From Lama glama (taxonomy: Eukaryota), in NCBI GenBank assembly GCA_028534125.1, contig CM052816.1, positions 75,642,001 to 75,706,000 on the forward strand: a DNA stretch of 64,000 nucleotides, read 5' to 3'. Shown here piece after piece: positions 26,059 through 64,000 of the stretch. Every line of letters starts with the position of its first letter. Positions within the stretch are counted from its first letter, which is position 1. The notes beneath the pieces are model-generated. The model made no database searches. It was not told where the DNA came from and saw only the letters and a list, made by a program, of their open reading frames with translations. Both the position numbers and the translations under genes were made by a program.

Positions 26059-26254
26059 CCACATTTTACCACATATATTTACAGGCCCATAGATATAAAT
26101 AAAATGACTGTTTCAGGATGTGGCAAAGAGCTCTGAGCCAAAGCTTTGGCTATTAGGTGATTTGTCCTTAGACTTATCAGACCACAAAATAAAACAAAAC
26201 GAAATGAAAAACTACAGCCCATCGATGTGCACAGGAAGCTGCCCAGCACCTTAC

Positions 26255-26402
26255 CCATTTCCAGTAAGTTCTATGTTGGGAGGAGGTTGATAGAGGTCAC
26301 AGGAAGGTCTGCTTTCTGATTCCTCGCATCTGTCTTCATCAGCACTGTCTTCTTCACAGTCAGAATCCCCATTGCAAACCAAAGATTTGCTAATGCACTG
26401 AC
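26255..26402 (-). CDS. C7: C7 exon 5 (LDL-receptor class A)
   Basis: tcag|GT CAG...AAT GG|gtaag; 148 nt; [48 protein letters not shown]. Confidence 0.97.
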
Positions 26403-28203
26403 CTGAACCCAAGAAAAGCCACCACACAAAAATAAAAGGGTAAAGAAAGGAAATGCTACCTGGGATCTAAAGGTTTTGCCCCAACCCCCAACACTGCACT
26501 GATATTCTACTGTGAATTTGAGATACAACCTCAGTGTCCAGGGAAAGATCTGTTGATTATTTTGGTCCTCATTTTGCAACATGCAGAATTGATTCTGACT
26601 TTGGCTGGACACAAAATTGAAAAGACAACCTAAATTCAAATTCCAGGCTCTCACCCATAATCATCAAGCATCTGAATTCTGAATTCTTTGTTTGCATTCT
26701 CCAAAATCATATAATGCCAACCACTGGGAAGAAAGATTGACCCCCTCCTGCCCTTCAACTTTCCATTTCTTTTCTGTAATCACTGACCAAGATGCCTTTC
26801 TTGGTAATTTAGACACGTGCACATTGAGAGCGTGGGAACTAGATCAAAAGGTTAAAATTCAACATTTCTTTAGAACCTAGTCTGTGCAGGACACTCTTTT
26901 GGGTGTTGGGATGTGAATATAAATTAAAAGGGTGCTCCTCAGGCTTTGCATACACTTTACAATCTAATAGGACAGACTAAGAAGATAGGTAATTACAATT
27001 CAGCAACATAATTGTGATACTTACAAGCTCAGGGTACCAGCAGCACTAGAAGAAGCACTAGAGGAAGCACTAGGTACTAGATGACCTAGCCCCTGCCTAC
27101 CTCCCCAGCATCGTCTCCAGCCATTCCCTTACCAGCCTCCTATGCCTGGTCATGCTGGATAACTTACATAAATCAAAGGCAAGCTCTTTGTCATCTCCAC
27201 TGACCTTGCACCTACAGTTCTCTCAGCCTAGAAAGGTTTTCTCTACCTATTACCTATTTGCCCCTCAAGAATCAAATTATACATTATCTCCTTTCTGAAA
27301 CCATCCTTGCCCCTCAGGCTGCGACGTATGTCCCTCCTCTGTGTCATTATAGTATGGACTGCACAGAGTTACCCTGATAGCATCCCATTATGCTGTGACT
27401 TGACCCAATGCAGCAACTATTTGTTGAGGGTCTACTATGTACCAGACACTAGATGCAAAAATAAAAGAAATATAATTGACATCTTTAAGGAGTTCGCAAT
27501 CTACCAGGGCAACAAATTCAGATTACAAATACAATGCACGTAGAGAACATGGAAAGTGACTTATTAAATAGCTCTATCAGCTGGCGGCTTAGAGAAGTCC
27601 TCCCTGAGGAGGCATCATCTGATTTCGGTTGTGAAAGTAAAACAGGAATTTGACAGGTATTGTTGAGAAGCACATTTAACACAAGAATTATTTATGTACT
27701 GTTCCACCCATAAAATTTTGAGAGTTTTGAGCCTATGTGTGTCATTCTACATTCACAACTCTCATCACTATACCTGGAACATAATAAGAACTGTTATTAA
27801 ATTAATTTAACTGTTGTTGAATTAATTTATCTGCACAAATGCAACATAGACCATAGGTCAAATAACTCTCAATCCAAAAATTACGTTTCAGTCACCACGC
27901 ATAGGGATGATCTATATTGCTCATTCATTAGCTAATTAAAATTGCTTTTCTTGTAAACATAAAAATAATTTGGGCAGTAATATTCTTTTTGCCCAATCTC
28001 AGTGTACATTCCAGGCTCACTCTCCATTTTCACCAAAAATGCAATGTCAAGAACCATGTGGGTCTGTCAATAGCCATATTTCTTTTCAAAGAGGCAAAGT
28101 TTACAATCTAATAGGACAGACTAACTTTTATTACCAGATGCCACTGATGCATTTGAAAGAATAACAGTTGAGTGTGCAATTAAATGCCAATAAAAATCCT
28201 ATT

Positions 28204-50310: not shown

Positions 50311-51083
50311 ATCCAGATGGTAGAATTATGAGGGACTTTCTACACCATATATTTCTACAGTGTTTGAAATTTTTTCCAAAGATTATGTTACCTTCTATTT
50401 AAAAAAAAAAGAGATGAATTAGAAGAAGAATGAGGAGGGAAAGGAAGGGAGTAAGGGGATTTGGGAAAAGAAGAGAGGAAGAAACAATTTTCTTGACCCA
50501 GTAGGCACAGCACTTTCTTTTCAATCAAATTTCTTTAAGTGTCTGCTTCCTCACTTTCCATTCACATCTTCACCCTCCCCAGCCTGGCTTCTGTGCCCTT
50601 TTCTCCCTAAAGCTATACTGACAATCAAACAACACAAGGGAGCATGTCTCAGTTCTTACCTTAATGATCTATCTGAGATATTTGACACCATTTGCCAAAA
50701 TTCCAAGAGATTCCCACGAACCTAAAGCAATATTCTGGCATACATCACATGATTAATGATCTTTTTCTTCTTTCTTGTGGGCTACAAATGAGAATAGTAA
50801 ATTATGAGTGGTCTTGTATTGTCATTAAGCAAGGAACAGTGCTTATGCAGATGAAACATGCATGCATGCAAGGCTCCTGTTAAAAAAACCTCTCCATATC
50901 CAAAATTAATGTCCATCCTAAAGGAGATAATTAAAAAGATTAAAGCATTGCTTCCTTTTTGAACCAGACTCTAGGAGCTGTAGAGAAGAGCCCCAGGGTC
51001 TGCTTTCTCACAAAGTGGGAGGGGAAGAAGAAGGTGTGTCCACAACTGCTCATTGAAAGAAGAAATATTTTTTGCAAATAACT

Positions 51084-54419: not shown

Positions 54420-56684
54420 TTAATGCTTCCCTACCCTCTTGGGCCCTGCTCTTGGGTAGTAAGCCTGAGCCGGTGAGGGACTGGTCTTAGATGACTTGCG
54501 TTGAGTGGGTCTGGGCTGAGAAGTCTCACCTGGGGAGGACTGCGACTTGGATGGCTTGGGCTGAGTGGATGGAGAACATTCAGTTTGGGTTGGCCGGGGC
54601 TGAGGGGGTCTTGTCTGAGTGGGTTTGGGTTGAGAGAACACAGATTGGTAGGGGTTTTGCTGGGAGTGCTTGACCTGGGATAACCTGGGTTGATTGGATT
54701 TGAACTGAGAGCTGGGCAAAAATGCGCTTTTGGACATGGGATGGAATCCCATTTGGAAAGATGGATTTGAAGGCCCACCTTATGTCTTCAGCTTGGCTCC
54801 TTGCTGAGAGGCAGTTATGGGTTTTTGTTTGGCTCCTGCTGGTCGAAAGGCTTGAGGGTGAGGATTTTTAATATGGGATGTTGTTCTTATAAATTTTCCA
54901 GTTGCCTCAGTTGGCTGTGTTCCCCAGGCACAGGCTTGCCTAGGCTGTGACTTTCCAACTGCTCCTGCTGGCTGCAAACCCAGAGAATGGAGGTGACCTA
55001 CCTGGGAGACCAATGCCCCAGACCTTTCAAGGGCTCCCATTGTCTGTGGTCTCTTGGGCCAGGCCTGTACATGTTGAGAAATGGGTCTTGGTGTCTCCCA
55101 AAAGTCCTATTCACATGACGTCCCTGTGCAGTTCTCAAAAATTTCATAAATCTTTCACCAGAATAAAATCTCTGCGGTTGGAAGTATTAAATCCCCAAAC
55201 TTTTCCTTGGACTGTGGGCCCCTGTATTCTGAAAGGGCAAAGGATGGAACCACTTAGATCTCTGCTCTGACCAAAAGTGGGAGCCCATAGTCCAGGGGGC
55301 TTTCAAAGAAGCATGGTTAAAGTAACCTCCAATTCTGGTTGGTAAAGGGTGGGAGTTTTTCAGATAAGGCATGAATACTGAGGTAAGATGGAAATTCTGA
55401 ATATTCTGGCTGATCTCACATATAGCCCCAGGCTCTCTTACAGACATCTCATTGGGGCTTTCAGATGAGTGTTTGGCTGACTGTGTCTTTGTTGTCCCTC
55501 ATCTTCAGCTGTTCCAGCCAAGTTTTCACCAGGGGAAACTTGATTTCCCGGAATGTTCTCAAAGTCTTGGTCTACCTGTATTCCCAACTCCCGGGCCAGG
55601 AAGGCCATATCCTCCACAGACACATATCTGAGTAAACAGGACATCACTTCCTGGAGGGCAGCGTGAAGGCCCTCCATGTTCTCCCCTCTCTCCCCAGCTT
55701 CCTCCTCCTCCCAAAACAGTAGCTGTGATGGCTTCAACTTCAGGATCCTGTGGAAAATCTGAGCCTCTTCACTAGCCCGATTTGGGGACTGAGGACAAAA
55801 TATAATCTTTCAATCGCAGCTTCTCCTAAAAACATTAGCAAGTCCCATTCCTTCTCATCTAGGCAGTCAGTGAAAAAAAAAAAACACAGCTGAGGAAACT
55901 TCCATCAAGAAACCAAACTGTGTCCAAAAACTTTCTAGATCTCCAAGAAGGTTGGCCGCAGCAACAGGCTTCTGGAAGAAACTGGGGTTTTCCTTCAGAC
56001 TGTCGCTATCAGGAAAACACCAGGTTATCCCAACCAGGCCATCAGAGATCTGCCGGGGAAGCACCAGAACAGGCAAATCCTGATGGAGAAAGATTTCGTG
56101 TGATTTCAAGTGGGCAGGGCTGAGCAGTGTGTTGAGGATTTTGGACTTGGAGAAGCTACAGTATCCTAGATGCACAAAAGAGATGACAGGCAACTTCATG
56201 ACAGTCAGAAACTTTTCTGTATCCCTTGCTGACTGCTCCTTCACAATGTCCTTCATGGCACCCAGCATGAAAATGGTTCTGTTGTTTTCTGCATCTGGCA
56301 GTAGCAGGGGAAGAGCAAACTAGCATTGATACATGTTTGACATGATCTCGCACTGCAAAGAGCTGTCTGAACACAGCAGAGAGGCACAGAGGACATCAAG
56401 GGGATTAATGGTTTCCATTTCTCTAATTTCCAAATCCTCTGATCCAGTCAGCAATTCCCCTTTGCCATTCTCACCCAGAACCTTCTGCCTGAGGATTGAA
56501 TCTCAGGCTGTCACATCCAGTGCTTGAACTTTCATCAGGAAATTCCAGGCTAAGTCACCTGGAGTTTCAGGCATCCACCCACATCCTCAGTCTAAGGAGA
56601 ACTGCTTAATGAAATCTGGCAGAAGCTTTCTGCTCCTAACCAGGTTCAAACAGGACAGGACATCTTTAAACACTTTTTTCCTTT
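54420..56684 (-). pseudogene. CARD6: CARD6 pseudogene, exon 3 (URG4/VLIG-like region and Pro/Gln/Ser-rich tail)
   Basis: Starts ERKKVFKDVL and ends GPKRVGKH* as in CARD6; stops at 56587-89, 56503-05, 56320-22, 55187-89, 54780-82; frameshifts at about 55873-84, 55780, 55470, 55093. Confidence 0.95.
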
Positions 56685-57602
56685 CTGTAGGAAAGAAGAT
56701 AGTCAGTGAATGTTATGTTCAGCATCCAAGCTTCCTTCATTGGCTTTTAAAATTAAATAAGTAATTGACATTTTCATTGGGGAAAAAAAGGTGAAATGAT
56801 ACAAGTGAAAGTTCCCTTTCACCACTCTGCCAACTCTAAGAGATAACATCAATTTCCTTCTAAGAGATATGTCAATATGGTATGGTATGTTTCCTTCCCA
56901 TCCTTTCTCTATGCAAGTAATAAGTATGCTTGCATATATAGAAATACACAGTTTGGTTTAATGGATGCCATTTTAGTTTCTAAATGGTATTATTCCAAAT
57001 GACCCTTTAACTTCTTTTCACTCAATTGTATTCCTTGCAAATTCTTCCAAGTCAGTATATACAGAGACCTACTTAATTCATTTTAGCTAATCTATTGTAT
57101 TTCCTGGTTTGGAAGAACCATTATTTATTTAAACATTGTCTAGTGATGATCATTTAGGTTTTCCAAGTTTTGGGCTAATGTTTGTATGCAGCAATGAAAA
57201 GCCTTGTTGATGCTTCATTATACATAAGTATGAGGAATTCTCTAGGTTGATACTGATTTCTTTCTTAAATTCTATTTCTTGCTAACGTTTGGAGAAATGG
57301 AAGATTTTATTTTCATTAAAGTTTTCTCAAAATTTACATGTTGTACCTAATTTCTCTTGATTTCCCATTTTATAATTTATCTTCTAGCCACTTCTTGGGA
57401 ATACAGAGATAGTTCTTAGTAGAGAAAGGAAATCAGAGAGCATTTTCTGTTCCTGATGGATAGTAAGTTAGCACAAGCTTCTTGGATCTCCTATAAAAAT
57501 AACCTAGAAGATACAACAAACATAAGAGACAGTATGGATTTCAAGAATTGACAAAAGTAACTCTAAGAAATCCTTGGATGGTCTGAAACTGGTATATAGA
57601 GC

Positions 57603-57906
57603 TATCCTTATAAAAAGGGGAAATTTTAGCAGAGAGATAAGCACCGAGGAAGACAATCACGTGAAGATGAAGGCAGACTCGGGGGATGGTTCTACAAGCC
57701 AAAGAAGGCCAAAGATTTCCAGCAAACTACCAGAAGCTAGGAACAGATTCTTCTTCACAGCCTTCAAAAGGAACCAACCCTTCAGACACCTTGATTTCAA
57801 ACTTCTGGTCTCCAAACTGTAAGACAATACATTTATTTCTATTGCTTACTGTTTAAGCTACCAAGTTTGTGGTATGACTTTGTTACAGCAATCCTAGTAA
57901 CTACTT
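57603..57906 (+). mobile_element. MaLR LTR (MLT1B/C-like) in CARD6 intron 2
   Basis: gtgaagatgaaggcag...ctacaagccaa...gacaccttgatttc...ttgttacagcaatcctag. Confidence 0.75.
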
Positions 57907-58591
57907 CCAGGTGTGCTGAGCAGGAAATTACTCTTTTCTGATCCATAACTATTATGAATCCCCAGAATTTGGACTCAATGTGAGTCAGTAGTTACCTTCC
58001 CCCTCTCTACTCAGAACTTGATGTTTACTTTCCATGACAATATGTCTCCAAATTAAACATTTCTCATATTTTGAATTTTCATTAAGAAATATTCACACTC
58101 AACATATCAGTTTAATTTTCTTCATCAAGATGGTAATATTGGGACTGGATCCAACCAAGCAGCAATATTTTGGGATCTTATCCATTCAGCACAAACTCCT
58201 CCCCTGTTTCCATTTCCACAGTCAGGCCGAAAATCCCTATTTTCTATTGGTCACAACAATGCAAAAATGTCTAAAAAGGCTTAATCTGAGGAACAGAGGT
58301 AACAGCTAAAATTAGTGCTTAGCAACTTCTTATACGTCTGATGGAAGTGACTGCAAAAACCGATAAGCTGATAATCAATATTTACTTTTGCTTATCTGAC
58401 CACCACTTTTAGGTTCAGGCTCTTCTGTCACCACCTACTCCTGAGAAAATCCCCAGTTAGAGAGGGACAAGTAATTTCTCAGTAGCTCCTTTTCTGCTGA
58501 CATCTGGTGCCCATCCTCAGCCCCTCACCTTTATGTCATGGCAACCTAGAGATAAGTCGCCTGAGTAACTACACACACATCACTCCCATAC

Positions 58592-59128
58592 CTTCCAGTC
58601 TTTTCTCCTCTTCCTCCTCCAATGACATGCCAGCTTCTGAATCCTCATCATTCTGTTCTTCATCAGAGAACTCCGTGGTTTCTGAATACACAGAGTCCTC
58701 TTTGCCATCATACATAACGCACTCTGGGTCATCAGAATCCTCCTCTTCCACAGTGGTTTCTGCATCTTCAGAGTATCCAACAGATTCCAGATAGTCCTCT
58801 TTTCCTAAGTATAAAGAATCATCTGGCTGCTCGTATCTCTGTCCATCCTGTAAATACTCAATAGTTGTTGGAAATTCATATTCAACATTCTCAACTGATT
58901 GTGGCGATGTGAACTTTGGTGTGTTGCATTCCTTCTTGTCTTCCTTTGAGGAACAAGCAGTTTCCCGATAACTAACTTTCTTGTCTGTGAAAGACTCAAG
59001 AGTTCTTTCTCTTTGAAGGACTTGGTGATCTCAGGATTTTCAGGCTGTTTCTCTCCAGGAAAAAAAAAAATCTTCCTTGTTTACTCCCATAGATTGAGGT
59101 GGTTCTATATTCCCATGTTTTAAAAATT
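58592..59128 (-). pseudogene. CARD6: CARD6 pseudogene, exon 2 (acidic region)
   Basis: Intact ag/gt ends; translates EFLKHGNIEPPQSMG...PGEKQPENPEIT...DGQRYEQPDDSLYLGKEDYLESV...SETTEFSDEE...EEEEEKRLE, collinear with CARD6; frameshifts at about 59060-59070 and 58998. Confidence 0.92.
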
Positions 59129-60726
59129 CTGAAAAGAACAAGAAAGTTTTGGGGAGTTTTCTTTTCTTTTTTTAAATTAACAAATGTTATAATAACTTGA
59201 GTTTCCATGGCCTGAAAGCATCACCTCTCTTCTTTATTTCACTGGATGATAGGAATACCTACCACCTCCCACAGAAATGGCAACAAGTCAGCTGTAAGAG
59301 CTTTCTCCCAGCAAAAAAAAATCAGATTACACCCCTGCCTTGTTCAAAAGTTCAAAATAATGTCAATAGACAAAAACATACACATTTTAGGAATATACAT
59401 GGCATCAATATATTACGTAAAATGAAAAGTTAGGAAATGAAACTCAGAAGGATGGTTACCTTGGTTGGGGGATGCTGGGGATGGGATGGGATTGGGGGAC
59501 AGGAAGATCATGGAGTAAGACATAGGATATCATCTGGGGATAAGTTTATAGGCGCTGATTGTATTATAAAAGGTGAACAGTTAAACATGTAAATGACAGA
59601 AGGCCATGCATGGACCAATGCTGAGCATGTATTAGGAACCAAGGGTGATGATTCATTAAATTCTGGTGTCCCTAAGTTTGAAAAAGAGTAAGAAAATCCT
59701 AATATGACATTAAAAATTAACTTCAGGTTAAGAGTTTTAGTATGTCACAAAGGTACGGGTTTCAAGAGATGCATCCTATCTAATACTAACATTTTGATTT
59801 GCAATGTTAGTAAGTTTGCCATTTTTTTTTTTTGTATTCAGCTTGGTTGGTAAGGTATTCTAATAACCAGCTTCTCAAACCCCGTCTCCTCCCCGCTGCT
59901 CCCCTCTAAATACTCTCCTTTCCCATAATAACCTGCTCAAGGAGATCTCACAGCTGATGGGAAGAAAAGTGTTTATCTGAACTGGATATTTCATAGCAAG
60001 ATTAAATTTAGGGAAGGAAGTTTAAATTCAGCTCCTTGGTAACAGGAAATCTGCACTGCACAGGCTTAGAATGCAAATGAAAGTGAGATAGGGGAGGGTG
60101 ACCAGGAGATGCAGATTTGAAAATAGATCCCTCAAATCAAATCCAATAAAACAGGAGTAAACACTTTATTTGCATCTAGAAATTTAAGTTAGATGATGTT
60201 TTTAAGAGAAAATTCAGCAGCAATTTTGTTTCATCTATCATAGGGGAAAAAAAGGCAGGTCTATTGCAGTACCAGTGATTGAGACTTGAACTGTATCAGA
60301 GATGCAGGATTTATGAAGTCTTAATCACTCTCTGCCAAAAGGCAAAATGCCATAGGGCCAATACCTAGGAAACAGCATAGATCATCTGTTTCAGAAGTCA
60401 ATCTACTTCTGAGCTAAACTTGGCATTTGAATAGAAACTTGGAGGTTCTAAACTGGTTTCATAGGCCTCTGCAGAGCCACAGGCCTACTTGACCCGGGCC
60501 AGAATGGTGTGATTTTAAGCACACCAAAAAGGGAGAGGAGGCAAAATATTTCACTCTGATGTTTACAAATTTGGGGAATGTCTGGGGCAAAAGAGACTCT
60601 CACACAGTGCCTGCCACACAGTTTGGCTCCTTGATGGTTGCTACCTGTCCTACCCTTTCTGAAACCCAGCAGGACCGTGTGGGGCCCTCCTGGGTACAAG
60701 TATTTCCATGTCCCTCTTTTCTTGTT

Positions 60727-61177
60727 TGTAGGAAACGCTTCGGCCTCCTAGACCTTCCCTGAGCTCCACAGGACAAAGTCACTAATTAGGGAAGTGGAGG
60801 AAGGCAGAAACAAAGAAAAAGCAGTTAAGTGTGGCAATAATGCAGGGTCCTGGTTCCTTGGTTCCTCCTCAATAGAGACACATTACAATCTGATATGTAC
60901 TTTTGAGTTCTTCTAAAGGAAATAAGGAAGCTTTAGGCTGAGCACATAATCCCTGGAACACCACTGTTACCTCACCACCAACCAATCAGAAGAAAGTCAC
61001 ACCCTACAGCCCTCACCTCAAATTTTGCCTTTAAATATCAGAGTTCCTGTCTTTTGAGCATAAGCCACCCCATTCTCCTAGGTTGGCCCTTGCAATAAAC
61101 CTTTCTCTGCTCCAAATGCCTATGTTTCGGTTTATGTGGCCTCACTGTGCACCAGGCACACAAACTTGTGTTCAACA
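60727..61177 (+). mobile_element. Solo ERV1-type LTR
   Basis: TG...CA ends, flanks tgtt/tgtc, CCAAT at about 60982, AATAAA 61094-61099. Confidence 0.75.
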
Positions 61178-61357
61178 TGTCTATACTGATCTCATTTCTC
61201 ACAATACTGTGCTAGGCAGAATAATGATCCTCCCTAAAGATGACTATGTCCTAATCCCCATACCTGTGAATCTGTTAGGTTACAAGGCAAAGGACAATTA
61301 AGGTTGCTAATCAGCTGACCTTGAGATAAAAAAATTGTCTGGGTGAGGCCAAGGGGC

Positions 61358-61669
61358 TGTTAAAAGACAAACTGAGACATATTACAAATGTGAAGTTTAT
61401 TTGAGCAAAAATTGATTCAAAAAGGGCAGTAGCAAACCAGAAGTGGTTAGTAGCATTCCACCTCTATAAGTCACACTTTCTATTATAAAGTGTGGCAGCA
61501 AAGAAAAGAAATTACTTGATTGGCTTAAAGATTAGTTGGCTGTGATCATTGTCCTTAGCGCTTCATAACCTGGAGGCATTTACGTGCCTAAACGTTGGTT
61601 TGCTTACTAGGCCACTAAAGCATTAGAGCCACCTCCATCTAATGGCTTTCTTGTTGAATTAATTCAACA
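61358..61669 (-). mobile_element. Short ERV-type solo LTR nested in the MLT1
   Basis: tgttaa...ttcaaca ends; AATAAA on the minus strand near 61397-61402; MLT1 resumes after it. Confidence 0.65.
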
Positions 61670-61929
61670 AGACCTTAAAAGTAGAAGAGGGGGACAGAAG
61701 AGAGTCAGAGCAATGTGATGTGAAAAACTCTTACTGTCTTTGAAAGTGGAAAAGGGCTAGAGGCCAAGGAGTATCAGCAGCCTCTACAAGCTGAAAAAGG
61801 CAAGAAAATATATTCTCTCTGTACAGCCTTGAAGAAAGGAATGCAGCCCTGCCCACACTTTCTTAGTCCAGGGACACCTACATCATGCTTGACTAAAACT
61901 GTAAGATAATAAATGTGTTCTGTGTTAAG

Positions 61930-62062
61930 AACGTTTAACATGAGACCCACCTCTTGACAGATTTTAAGTGTACAACACAGTATTGTCAACTGTAGGCACA
62001 ATATTGTACCACAGATCTCTATCTAAACTCATCGTGCATAACTGAAACTTTATACTAGTTGA
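61930..62062 (-). mobile_element. L1MA/MB 3'-end fragment nested in the MLT1
   Basis: ttttaagtgtacaacacagtattg...tgtaccacagatctct, typical L1M 3'UTR in reverse. Confidence 0.65.
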
Positions 62063-63269
62063 TTAAATTTATTTTGAGCCACCGAGTTTGTGGTTAATTG
62101 TTAGAATGGTAATGGGGAACTAACACAACGCCTAATCCAGAAAGTCTCCCCTGAATTGCAGTTTGGTCCAAGCACTCATATTGGCCTTCCTTCTCCCAGG
62201 CTGCACTCCCCCTCAATCCCCTACTCTCCATCTACCACTTCCATGAGGAGGGGGACTATGAGGACATAGTCATGTTTCTATTCTCAGCTCCTGGAAGAGT
62301 CTAGTACTGATTAAGCACCAATCAACTGTCAAAATTAAACCTCTAATTCCCAGACTCGATCTTGTTCCCTTAGTGGTTAGTCAACTACCTTTTCTAATAT
62401 TTCACAAGTGACAGGTTATGAATTCTGTTTCCTTTAAAAGCACGCACACTTAGGGTAGTTTTTCCCTATTAACTCTTAAATGATTGGGTTTTTTAAAAAT
62501 CATTTTGCGAGGGTAGGGGCTTTCCCAGGTAAGAAGGTTACAATTGGATCAGCGTTTATCAAGGTCTGGGAACCGCCAACACTAAGACTATTAACTGTTT
62601 TTTAAAAAGCACAGATTTCCACGTCCTACCCAAAGCAGCTGAAACAGATTTCCTCACGCTGGAGTTCAGAAAACTGTATTTAACAAATTCCACGTGTGAT
62701 TCCTTGGCATAATGAGATTTGGGGTCAAGCGATTTGCCTCTAAATTACTATAGTCTGAAAAAAAACATTATTTGCCTTTCTCTCAATATTCTGAGCCCAG
62801 TTCCTTAAAGGCCGGTCGTGCCTCCATTCTCCTAGTGAGCATCAACGTGAGCCAAAAAGCTTCCGGCCGGAGTGAGGAGGAACCTGGAGAAGCAAATTGG
62901 TTTCTCTCGGATTAGGACTCCAGTCCCATCCCGACCCCGACACAGACGGCGGGACCGATGAAACCGCGCGGGAACCCCAAGGCAGAGTAGCCACACTCTC
63001 CATGCTCTCCATCCGCTCCGGGACCGGATGTGGCCCAGCTCTGACTGAGAAAGCACGAAAGCCGGAGGGAAACAACTGCAGGACAGGGAGTCGAGTTCCG
63101 GCCTAAAGGAGGCTGCAGTGCGAGTCCGGCGGGGATACGCCCACCTTGGTCCCAGGGAGCTGTTAGCTCCGCCCTGCTGAACCCTCTATTGGCCCCACCT
63201 GCCTCCGGCTCCTCCTCTTGCCCCACCCACACTGCGACGACGGACGCTTGAGAACGGTGCACCGCGCTC

Positions 63270-63335
63270 CGCCGGAAGTACTTTCCTGGACGGAAGCTTT
63301 TGGGCGCGATATAGCGGAAGTACCTTCTCTTCCGG
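63270..63335 (+). promoter_or_regulatory. RPL37: RPL37 core promoter: three CGGAAG (ETS/GABP) sites and TCT/5'TOP initiator
   Basis: ccggaagt at about 63272, cggaagc at about 63291, cggaagt at about 63315; pyrimidine tract ccttctcttcc 63323-63333, typical of ribosomal-protein genes. Confidence 0.85.
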
Positions 63336-63363
63336 CCTCTTTGCACTCGGCTGCAGAATCGCG

Positions 63364-63366
63364 ATG
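63364..63366 (+). CDS. RPL37: RPL37 exon 1 coding part (ATG only)
   Basis: gcgATG|gtgagt consensus donor immediately after the start codon. Confidence 0.93.
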
Positions 63367-63961
63367 GTGAGTTGTGTGCAGGGGCTCTTGGAATCGGCTT
63401 CCATCCTCGCCCCCTGCGCCCCGCTCTTTGCTCTCCGTGGGCGCCCCGCGTAGTTTTCAATAAGGGGAGCCGGAGGACAGGAAAGGGATGTGTGATTGAC
63501 CTCAAGAGCCAAAAGAATGGCTCCTAATTATCTGGGGGTGCACAGTTAGGACTCGTGGAGCTCCAGCTCTTCTAGGCCCTTTGCTTTTGTCTGGCCTTTG
63601 GAGGGTCCCGCACAGTCATGCCCTCGAATGAGAACTGACGGAAGAAATACGGTTTGACAGTGTTTGGCTGTGAAAGCAAGGGTATCAGGGGTATCAGTTC
63701 GCGGTGGTCCTTGGCAGGAGCTCTTGGGTTTTGAAGTAGGAGAGGGTAGGAAAACCACATTGTCTCGTCTTTCACCTAAGGCTTTTTTTTTTTTTAATAA
63801 TGTAGCAGATTAGAAGACAGCAACTCTTGTGGCAAGCTTCAACATTTAAGAAAACCCCTTGTGATTGTCATTGATTCTTACCAGTAGTTTTTTAAGCTGA
63901 AAACATAAGAATTTGTCTAGAAACTACTAGGTTTTAGAATCGTTTACCCTTTAATTTGTAG

Positions 63962-64000
63962 ACGAAGGGAACGTCATCGTTTGGAAAGCGTCGGAACAAG
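63962..64000 (+). CDS. RPL37: 60S ribosomal protein L37 exon 2 (cut by window edge)
   Basis: tgtag|ACG AAG GGA ACG TCA TCG TTT GGA AAG CGT CGG AAC AAG = TKGTSSFGKRRNK, the eL37 N-terminus. Confidence 0.97.

Follow-up and report, generated by a model that had tools for sequence, protein, structure and literature searches.

The CARD6 locus and its neighbours

Here we analyze a 64,000-nucleotide stretch of the Lama glama genome (assembly GCA_028534125.1, contig CM052816.1, positions 75,642,001 to 75,706,000 of the forward strand; called the window below), in which the CARD protein gene CARD6 survives as two decayed exons on the minus strand. The window contains no N and lies on a 102-Mb scaffold of the 2.35-Gb assembly. 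The locus is very probably the orthologous, single-copy CARD6 in the state of a unitary pseudogene, inactivated in the stem lineage of the camelids.

The remnant of CARD6 exon 2 (58592-59128) retains its AG acceptor (59130-59129) and GT donor (58591-58590), and aligns to residues 95-278 of the red deer protein and also to the orangutan protein. The remnant of exon 3 (54420-56684) follows an AG acceptor (56686-56685), closes with a terminal TAA (54422-54420) and encodes the URGCP-like domain and a Pro/Gln-rich tail. The identity of the gene is established by a 150-aa open piece of exon 3 (55870-56319, minus strand), which carries the URGCP-like domain (PF25496, E 1.8e-46) and matches the CARD6 proteins of pig, red deer and hippopotamus at 83-84% identity in a protein search (253 matches at E<=0.001 among 590 candidates, the best 120 of the 253 being listed). 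Once read through its lesions, the exon 3 remnant as a whole is 72-80% identical to CARD6 of deer, hippopotamus and orangutan. The gene is functional in related lineages, as 82 full-length proteins (at least 950 aa) are found among the best 120 of the 253 matches, and deer, sheep and hippopotamus are named among the matches.

The remnant sits head to head with RPL37 (63364-64000, plus strand), whose domain (PF01907, 79.3 bits) is found at window positions 63962-64099 (C1:75705962-75706099), in a zinc-ribbon exon that runs past the window end. On its other side lies C7 (1518-33483), on the minus strand like the remnant, with 13 exons that encode residues 3-627 in an intact frame and include TSP1, LDLa, MACPF, EGF, TSP1 and Sushi domains. 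Functional CARD6 genes of red deer (P0003, 1036 aa), hippopotamus (P0004) and orangutan (P0013) have the same two neighbours, the same exon 2/3 structure and splice phases, and PF25496, whereas the window locus lacks exon 1 with the CARD domain, carries five stops, six frameshifts and a 7-codon deletion, and has a longest open piece of about 150 aa. Both the syntenic placement of CARD6 between RPL37 (domain from 63962, plus strand) and C7 (exons 33483-1518, minus strand) and the limits of exons 2 and 3 (59128-58592 and 56684-54420) agree with the original prediction, which was made from the letters of the window. A processed (retrotransposed) pseudogene was also considered, and is ruled out by the 1.9-kb GT-AG intron between exons 2 and 3 together with the syntenic position.

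Lesions in exons 2 and 3

Lesions were called by frameshift-aware protein-to-DNA alignment, with the deer and orangutan proteins as references for exons 2 and 3 and the hippopotamus protein for exon 3, and residue conservation at the stops was scored in an alignment of the 82 full-length orthologues. The three references agree on the exon-3 lesions, and deer and orangutan agree on those of exon 2.

Five in-frame stops interrupt the minus-strand reading frame of exon 3. These are a TGA at 56587-56589, at Arg311 (R in 70/82 orthologues), a TGA at 56503-56505, at Arg339 (R in 81/82), a TAG at 56320-56322, at position 400 (Q in 49/82), a TAA at 55187-55189, at position 780 (Q in 54/82), and a TAA at 54780-54782, at position 915 (likewise Q in 54/82). 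Because the two TGA codons fall on arginines and the other three stops on mostly glutamine positions, all five could have arisen by C-to-T changes.

Six frameshifts accompany the stops. Exon 2 contains a +1 shift in a T11 run (59060-59070, at about 59069), which leads to stops in the original frame and which, lying in a homopolymer, is the least secure lesion when taken alone, and a 16-nt deletion within 58989-59006 (about 58990-59005, its placement in this span being ambiguous), seen in the deer and orangutan alignments as six missing codons with two extra bases. Exon 3 contains a shift of +4 nt (+1 in phase) in a T12 run (55872-55884, at about 55881), giving ...FFFFH followed by a stop, and three shifts of -1 that appear in the deer, hippopotamus and orangutan alignments alike, located in the Ala586 codon (55780-55782, at about 55781), at 55469-55477 (about 55470) and at 55092-55094 (about 55093). 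In addition, a 21-nt (7-codon) in-frame deletion has its junction at 56224/56225, where nearly all of the 82 orthologues retain the segment. An otherwise recognisable gene, which has kept canonical splice signals at exons 2 and 3, thus carries multiple independent frame-destroying lesions relative to three reference species (five stops and six frameshifts), and no open piece exceeds about 150 codons. The stops had been predicted at exactly these coordinates, along with about six frameshifts (two in exon 2 and four in exon 3 on our alignments) and a 7-codon deletion near 56225; all were reproduced.

C7 as internal control and presence of the sequence in independent samples

The neighbouring C7 serves as an internal control for the quality of the sequence. 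Aligned to residues 3-627 of narwhal C7 over its 13 exons, it shows a single stop, which lies in intron read-through at one alignment edge; the contrast is therefore between no lesion in ~1,875 nt of C7 and 11 frame-breaking lesions in ~2,800 nt of CARD6. Since the C7 frame is intact over 625 codons of the same window, general sequence noise is not the explanation, as had been argued at the outset.

The stretch is also well represented in sequencing data, with 14 runs (four organisms, six studies) containing 94-98% of 495 sampled 31-mers. Two of the 14 runs are possibly the source of the assembly, and the 12 non-source runs contain 94-96% of the sampled words. By our estimate, words that overlap the dozen lesion sites make up ~8% of all words, so an allele free of all these lesions would fall below the shares observed in the runs. 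These shares argue against an artefact confined to the assembly, and are uninformative on individual lesions.

Loss of exon 1 and absence of a second copy

CARD6 exon 1 encodes Met1 and the CARD domain (residues 1-94). In the window its expected place is the 4.2-kb interval between exon 2 and the start of RPL37 (59129-63363, minus strand), which contains no trace of it, a loss that the original prediction did not see. A tblastn search of the locus for exon 1 with four references (E<=10) hit nothing but the opening residues of exon 2, and a profile of the N-termini of the 82 orthologues, run with all filters off over six frames of positions 59001-69000, likewise matched only the exon 2 start. 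Genome-wide, the best match to the deer CARD as query is 44% identical and lies on another scaffold, in an exon that belongs to NOL3 (match to PDB 4UZ0, E 1.7e-53), while the PF00619 profile gives 35 matches over the assembly, none of them on the scaffold of the window. As a positive control, the CARD6 N-terminal profile scores the NOL3 CARD at 66 bits, and would therefore have detected CARD6 exon 1. The missing N-terminal CARD domain (PF00619) is read as a loss in a dead gene, and not as counting against orthology. A weak CARD-like match on an unplaced contig (locus L009; E 1.97, one internal TGA) was examined as a possible stray exon 1 and rejected, having only 7.5 bits against the CARD6 N-terminal profile. 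The exon-1 interval also contains an old interspersed repeat of ~520 bp (60657-61177), many copies of which occur in the genome at 65-82% identity.

A genome search with the 150-aa piece gave the locus itself and only two paralogues, 44% and 35% identical, so that within this assembly no intact CARD6 exists elsewhere, in line with the single-copy loss first proposed. The 44%-identical locus (L002), the nearest paralogue in the genome, is URGCP, which shares the URGCP-like domain with CARD6. It differs from CARD6 in its overall sequence (36% identity), its open frame, its location on a different scaffold and its possession of a URGCP-GTPase domain, which Pfam does not find in CARD6. URGCP is not a replacement copy of CARD6.

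Lesions shared with Camelus and the timing of inactivation

The best match of a C7 exon of the window is the complement component C7 of Camelus ferus, with 6 differences in 277 true-exon residues, which bears out the earlier guess that the lineage is camelid. These differences place the animal outside Camelus and hence in the llama/alpaca group, the other of the two living branches of the family. Predicted proteins of the Camelus type also cover parts of the CARD6 remnant. One of them (P0241, 132 aa) is 93% identical to the window piece, and its cluster of six sequences includes a protein named CARD6 of Camelus dromedarius (P0247). P0241 and P0247 carry the identical 7-codon deletion, with KEQSTR joined to DTEKF where the window has KEQSAR joined to DTEKF. 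P0241 ends in ...AVFFFH, corresponding to one extra T in the T run, where the window has four extra in the same phase. Two further fragments (P0248 and P0250) read MIFCLQSTSRESEEAQ, a shifted frame upstream of RESEEAQ such as a 1-nt loss in the Ala586 codon gives, as in the window. All three window lesions that fall within the Camelus fragments (the 21-nt deletion, the T-run shift and the -1 shift near 55781) are thus common to both, none being missing from Camelus there; these are shared lesions of the kind that the original prediction proposed to look for in camels. Near position 55552 of the window, Camelus carries an additional, private frameshift (ENIRDSSFPW). P0247, the dromedary model, consists of 314 aa without a CARD domain and skips the region of the three upstream stops as well as the segment between two frameshifts. 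No intact camelid CARD6 protein was found among the best 120 of the 253 matches or among six matches of near length. An exact look-up of seven M-started open pieces of the window in the protein collection found none of the seven, and neither of two metagenome scans, whose queries were the window piece and a 10-species alignment, found CARD6 DNA of relatives.

As Camelus carries the same lesions, inactivation would predate the split between Camelini and Lamini (the camels and the llama group). The amino-acid divergence between Camelus and the window is 7.3% in CARD6 (21/287 residues) and 2.2% in C7 (6/277), a contrast that serves only as a proxy for relaxed constraint; at a nucleotide distance of around 3%, neutral change would give about the CARD6 value. 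Neutral decay would have to reach ~0.04 substitutions per site (Poisson range 0.013-0.10) to leave five stops in 930 codons, a value above the ~0.016 estimated for the branch since the Camelus split. The lesion load would fit inactivation well before the split, with wide uncertainty.

Residual transcription and misbuilt gene models

An open reading frame from a Camelus-type contig (P0251) joins the exon 2 donor (58592) to a cryptic exon at 50753-50781 on the minus strand (acceptor tttgtag/CC), skipping exon 3. P0251 ends in ...EEKRLE/AHKKEEKNH, to which AHKKEEKDH and then a stop codon correspond in the window. The CARD6 remnant is thus apparently still transcribed and spliced past exon 3, at least in Camelus.

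Two public camel models incorporate the dead exons. The protein annotated as complement component C7 of Camelus ferus (P0121) is a chimera that corresponds to window positions 58590-59523 and 26227-26403. Its first 93 residues consist of a spurious exon (59523-59458) and the CARD6 exon 2 remnant (58805-58590), after which the C7 exons follow. The dromedary model P0247 starts with the same spurious exon. A practical use of our results for annotation is that these public models, named "CARD6" (P0247) and "C7" (P0121), can be recognized as artefacts built around dead exons.

A model for CARD6 loss and its alternatives

We propose that the first exon was lost, taking with it the start codon and the CARD domain, and that the remaining two exons then decayed neutrally, accumulating the five stops, six frameshifts and 21-nt deletion. 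The locus could no longer produce any protein of more than ~150 residues. These events, in this order, would have taken place in the camelid stem before camels and the llama group separated, so that the broken gene is expected to be fixed in all camelids. The remnant would still be transcribed in Camelus, where exon 2 can apparently splice to the new downstream exon.

Several points weigh against this scheme. The frameshifts in the T11 and T12 runs are of an error-prone type that is also subject to recurrent slippage, and the shared T-run shift could accordingly be homoplasy. The Camelus evidence consists of predicted protein fragments, one of the six being named, and not of aligned DNA; the stops, the frameshifts at ~55470 and ~55093, those in exon 2 and the loss of exon 1 all lie outside these fragments. 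That exon 1 is absent is a negative finding drawn from a single assembly, and the age estimate draws on a Camelus-window distance from only 287 residues.

It is hardly credible that CARD6 is intact and that its lesions are errors of sequencing, polishing or collapse. The assembly is fragmented (1,072,352 contigs) and two of the six frameshifts sit in long T runs, but five lesions are base substitutions to stops and the other four frameshifts lie outside homopolymers. In addition, C7 is clean over 625 codons ~20 kb away, the 12 non-source runs contain nearly all of the sampled words, and sequences derived from Camelus independently carry three of the lesions. We find it just as difficult to believe that the window holds a decayed duplicate of a functional CARD6 located elsewhere or in unassembled sequence. 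An incomplete assembly might hide such a copy, but the remnant occupies the ancestral position between RPL37 and C7 with its introns kept, the genome search yields only the URGCP-like paralogues (44% and 35% identical), and no CARD6-type CARD occurs anywhere in the assembly.

A young loss, limited to llama and alpaca or segregating as a null allele while camels keep a working CARD6, appears very unlikely. It would be compatible with the position of the five stops outside the Camelus fragments, and with a T-run shift that arose by recurrent slippage. It is opposed by the agreement between the window and Camelus in both borders of the 21-nt deletion and in the codon hit by the -1 shift, by the form of the dromedary model (314 aa, without a CARD domain, jumping the broken segments), by the further frameshift that Camelus bears, by the lack of an intact camelid CARD6 protein among the matches listed, and by a lesion load suggestive of decay longer than the post-split branch. 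Retention of the remnant in a new capacity, with exon 2 spliced to the new exon in a transcript that is non-coding or encodes a short peptide, would be compatible with the loss of the CARD6 protein, and we regard it as unlikely. In its favour, the junction in P0251 runs exactly from the exon 2 donor to a cryptic exon with an AG border (at 50781), which the window has conserved; exons 2 and 3 have kept intact splice sites; and RNA-labelled runs contain 0.30-0.39 of the sampled words, a share from which we draw no conclusion about expression or species. Set against this, the splice is known from one contig-derived reading frame, dead genes are commonly transcribed, and exon 2 has no sign of constraint and carries two frameshifts in the window. 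We therefore return to the unitary pseudogene of the camelid stem: a syntenic, single-copy CARD6 so thoroughly broken amounts to the true loss of an innate-immune gene that had been predicted.

Function of CARD6 and meaning of its loss

CARD6 is interferon-inducible. According to one article, the initial proposal was that CARD6 activates NF-kB and binds RIP2, and other work found inhibition of NF-kB by CARD6 (PMC6949089). The article cites Dufner et al.; by its title, a knockout study in the reference list denies that CARD6 acts in NOD signalling (PMC6949089). The role of the protein is thus disputed, and less settled than the earlier description of CARD6 as a protein that binds RIPK2 and modulates NOD/NF-kB signalling implied, both activation and inhibition of NF-kB being described and involvement in NOD signalling being denied in the cited title (PMC6949089).

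A full-text search found no published report of CARD6 loss in camelids, although the supplementary tables of genome-wide loss screens, which are unsearchable, may list it. Lineage-specific losses in mammalian innate immunity include those of the MX genes in toothed whales and of IFIH1 and the cGAS-STING pathway in pangolins. As in camelid CARD6, a single-copy immune gene was inactivated in place in one clade and decayed neutrally, with lesions shared among the descendants. CARD6 differs from these genes in that its function is poorly defined, and therefore no phenotype can be attached to its loss.

A whole mammalian family that has long been without CARD6 would constitute a natural knockout and supports the dispensability of the gene, and the loss should be borne in mind when the innate immunity of camelids is compared with that of other livestock. 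Beyond its value as a natural knockout and for annotation, the locus is one more lineage-specific pseudogene, of an ordinary kind, to which our analysis adds the loss of the CARD exon, the sharing of lesions with Camelus and the misbuilt camel models.

CARD6 models in cetaceans

CARD6 models of the cetacean type are short, with 321 aa in the minke whale (P0068), 249 aa in the orca (P0243) and 204 aa in a further model (P0245). The three share one C-terminal end, ...SSESPA (deer residue 696), and the reading frame at the start of the minke model is wrong. As judged from P0068 and P0243, a second cetartiodactyl branch seems to have a broken CARD6, but with lesions that differ from those of camelids, the comparison being made at the level of protein models. 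The CARD6 of the hippopotamus is full length and intact, and a cetacean loss would therefore be independent. CARD6 may thus have been lost separately in whales; a full-text literature search found no published report on CARD6 in cetaceans.

We tentatively suggest, giving it slightly less than an even chance, that Cetartiodactyla saw at least two independent losses of CARD6, one in cetaceans and one in the camelid stem, where the CARD exon was deleted and the rest then decayed over tens of Myr, while hippopotamuses, ruminants and pigs keep it, and that in camelids the promoter region shared with RPL37 still drives transcription of the orphan exon 2, which is spliced to the new downstream exon. 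If true, repeated loss would mark CARD6 as an interferon-response gene that is dispensable or, in some settings, costly.

The RPL37 promoter region

The first exon of RPL37 presumably ends at ATG/GT (63364-63368, plus strand), a position proposed from the sequence alone. A GC-rich stretch (62850-63450) surrounds this presumed exon and its pyrimidine-rich leader, and represents the promoter region opposite which CARD6 once stood in head-to-head orientation.

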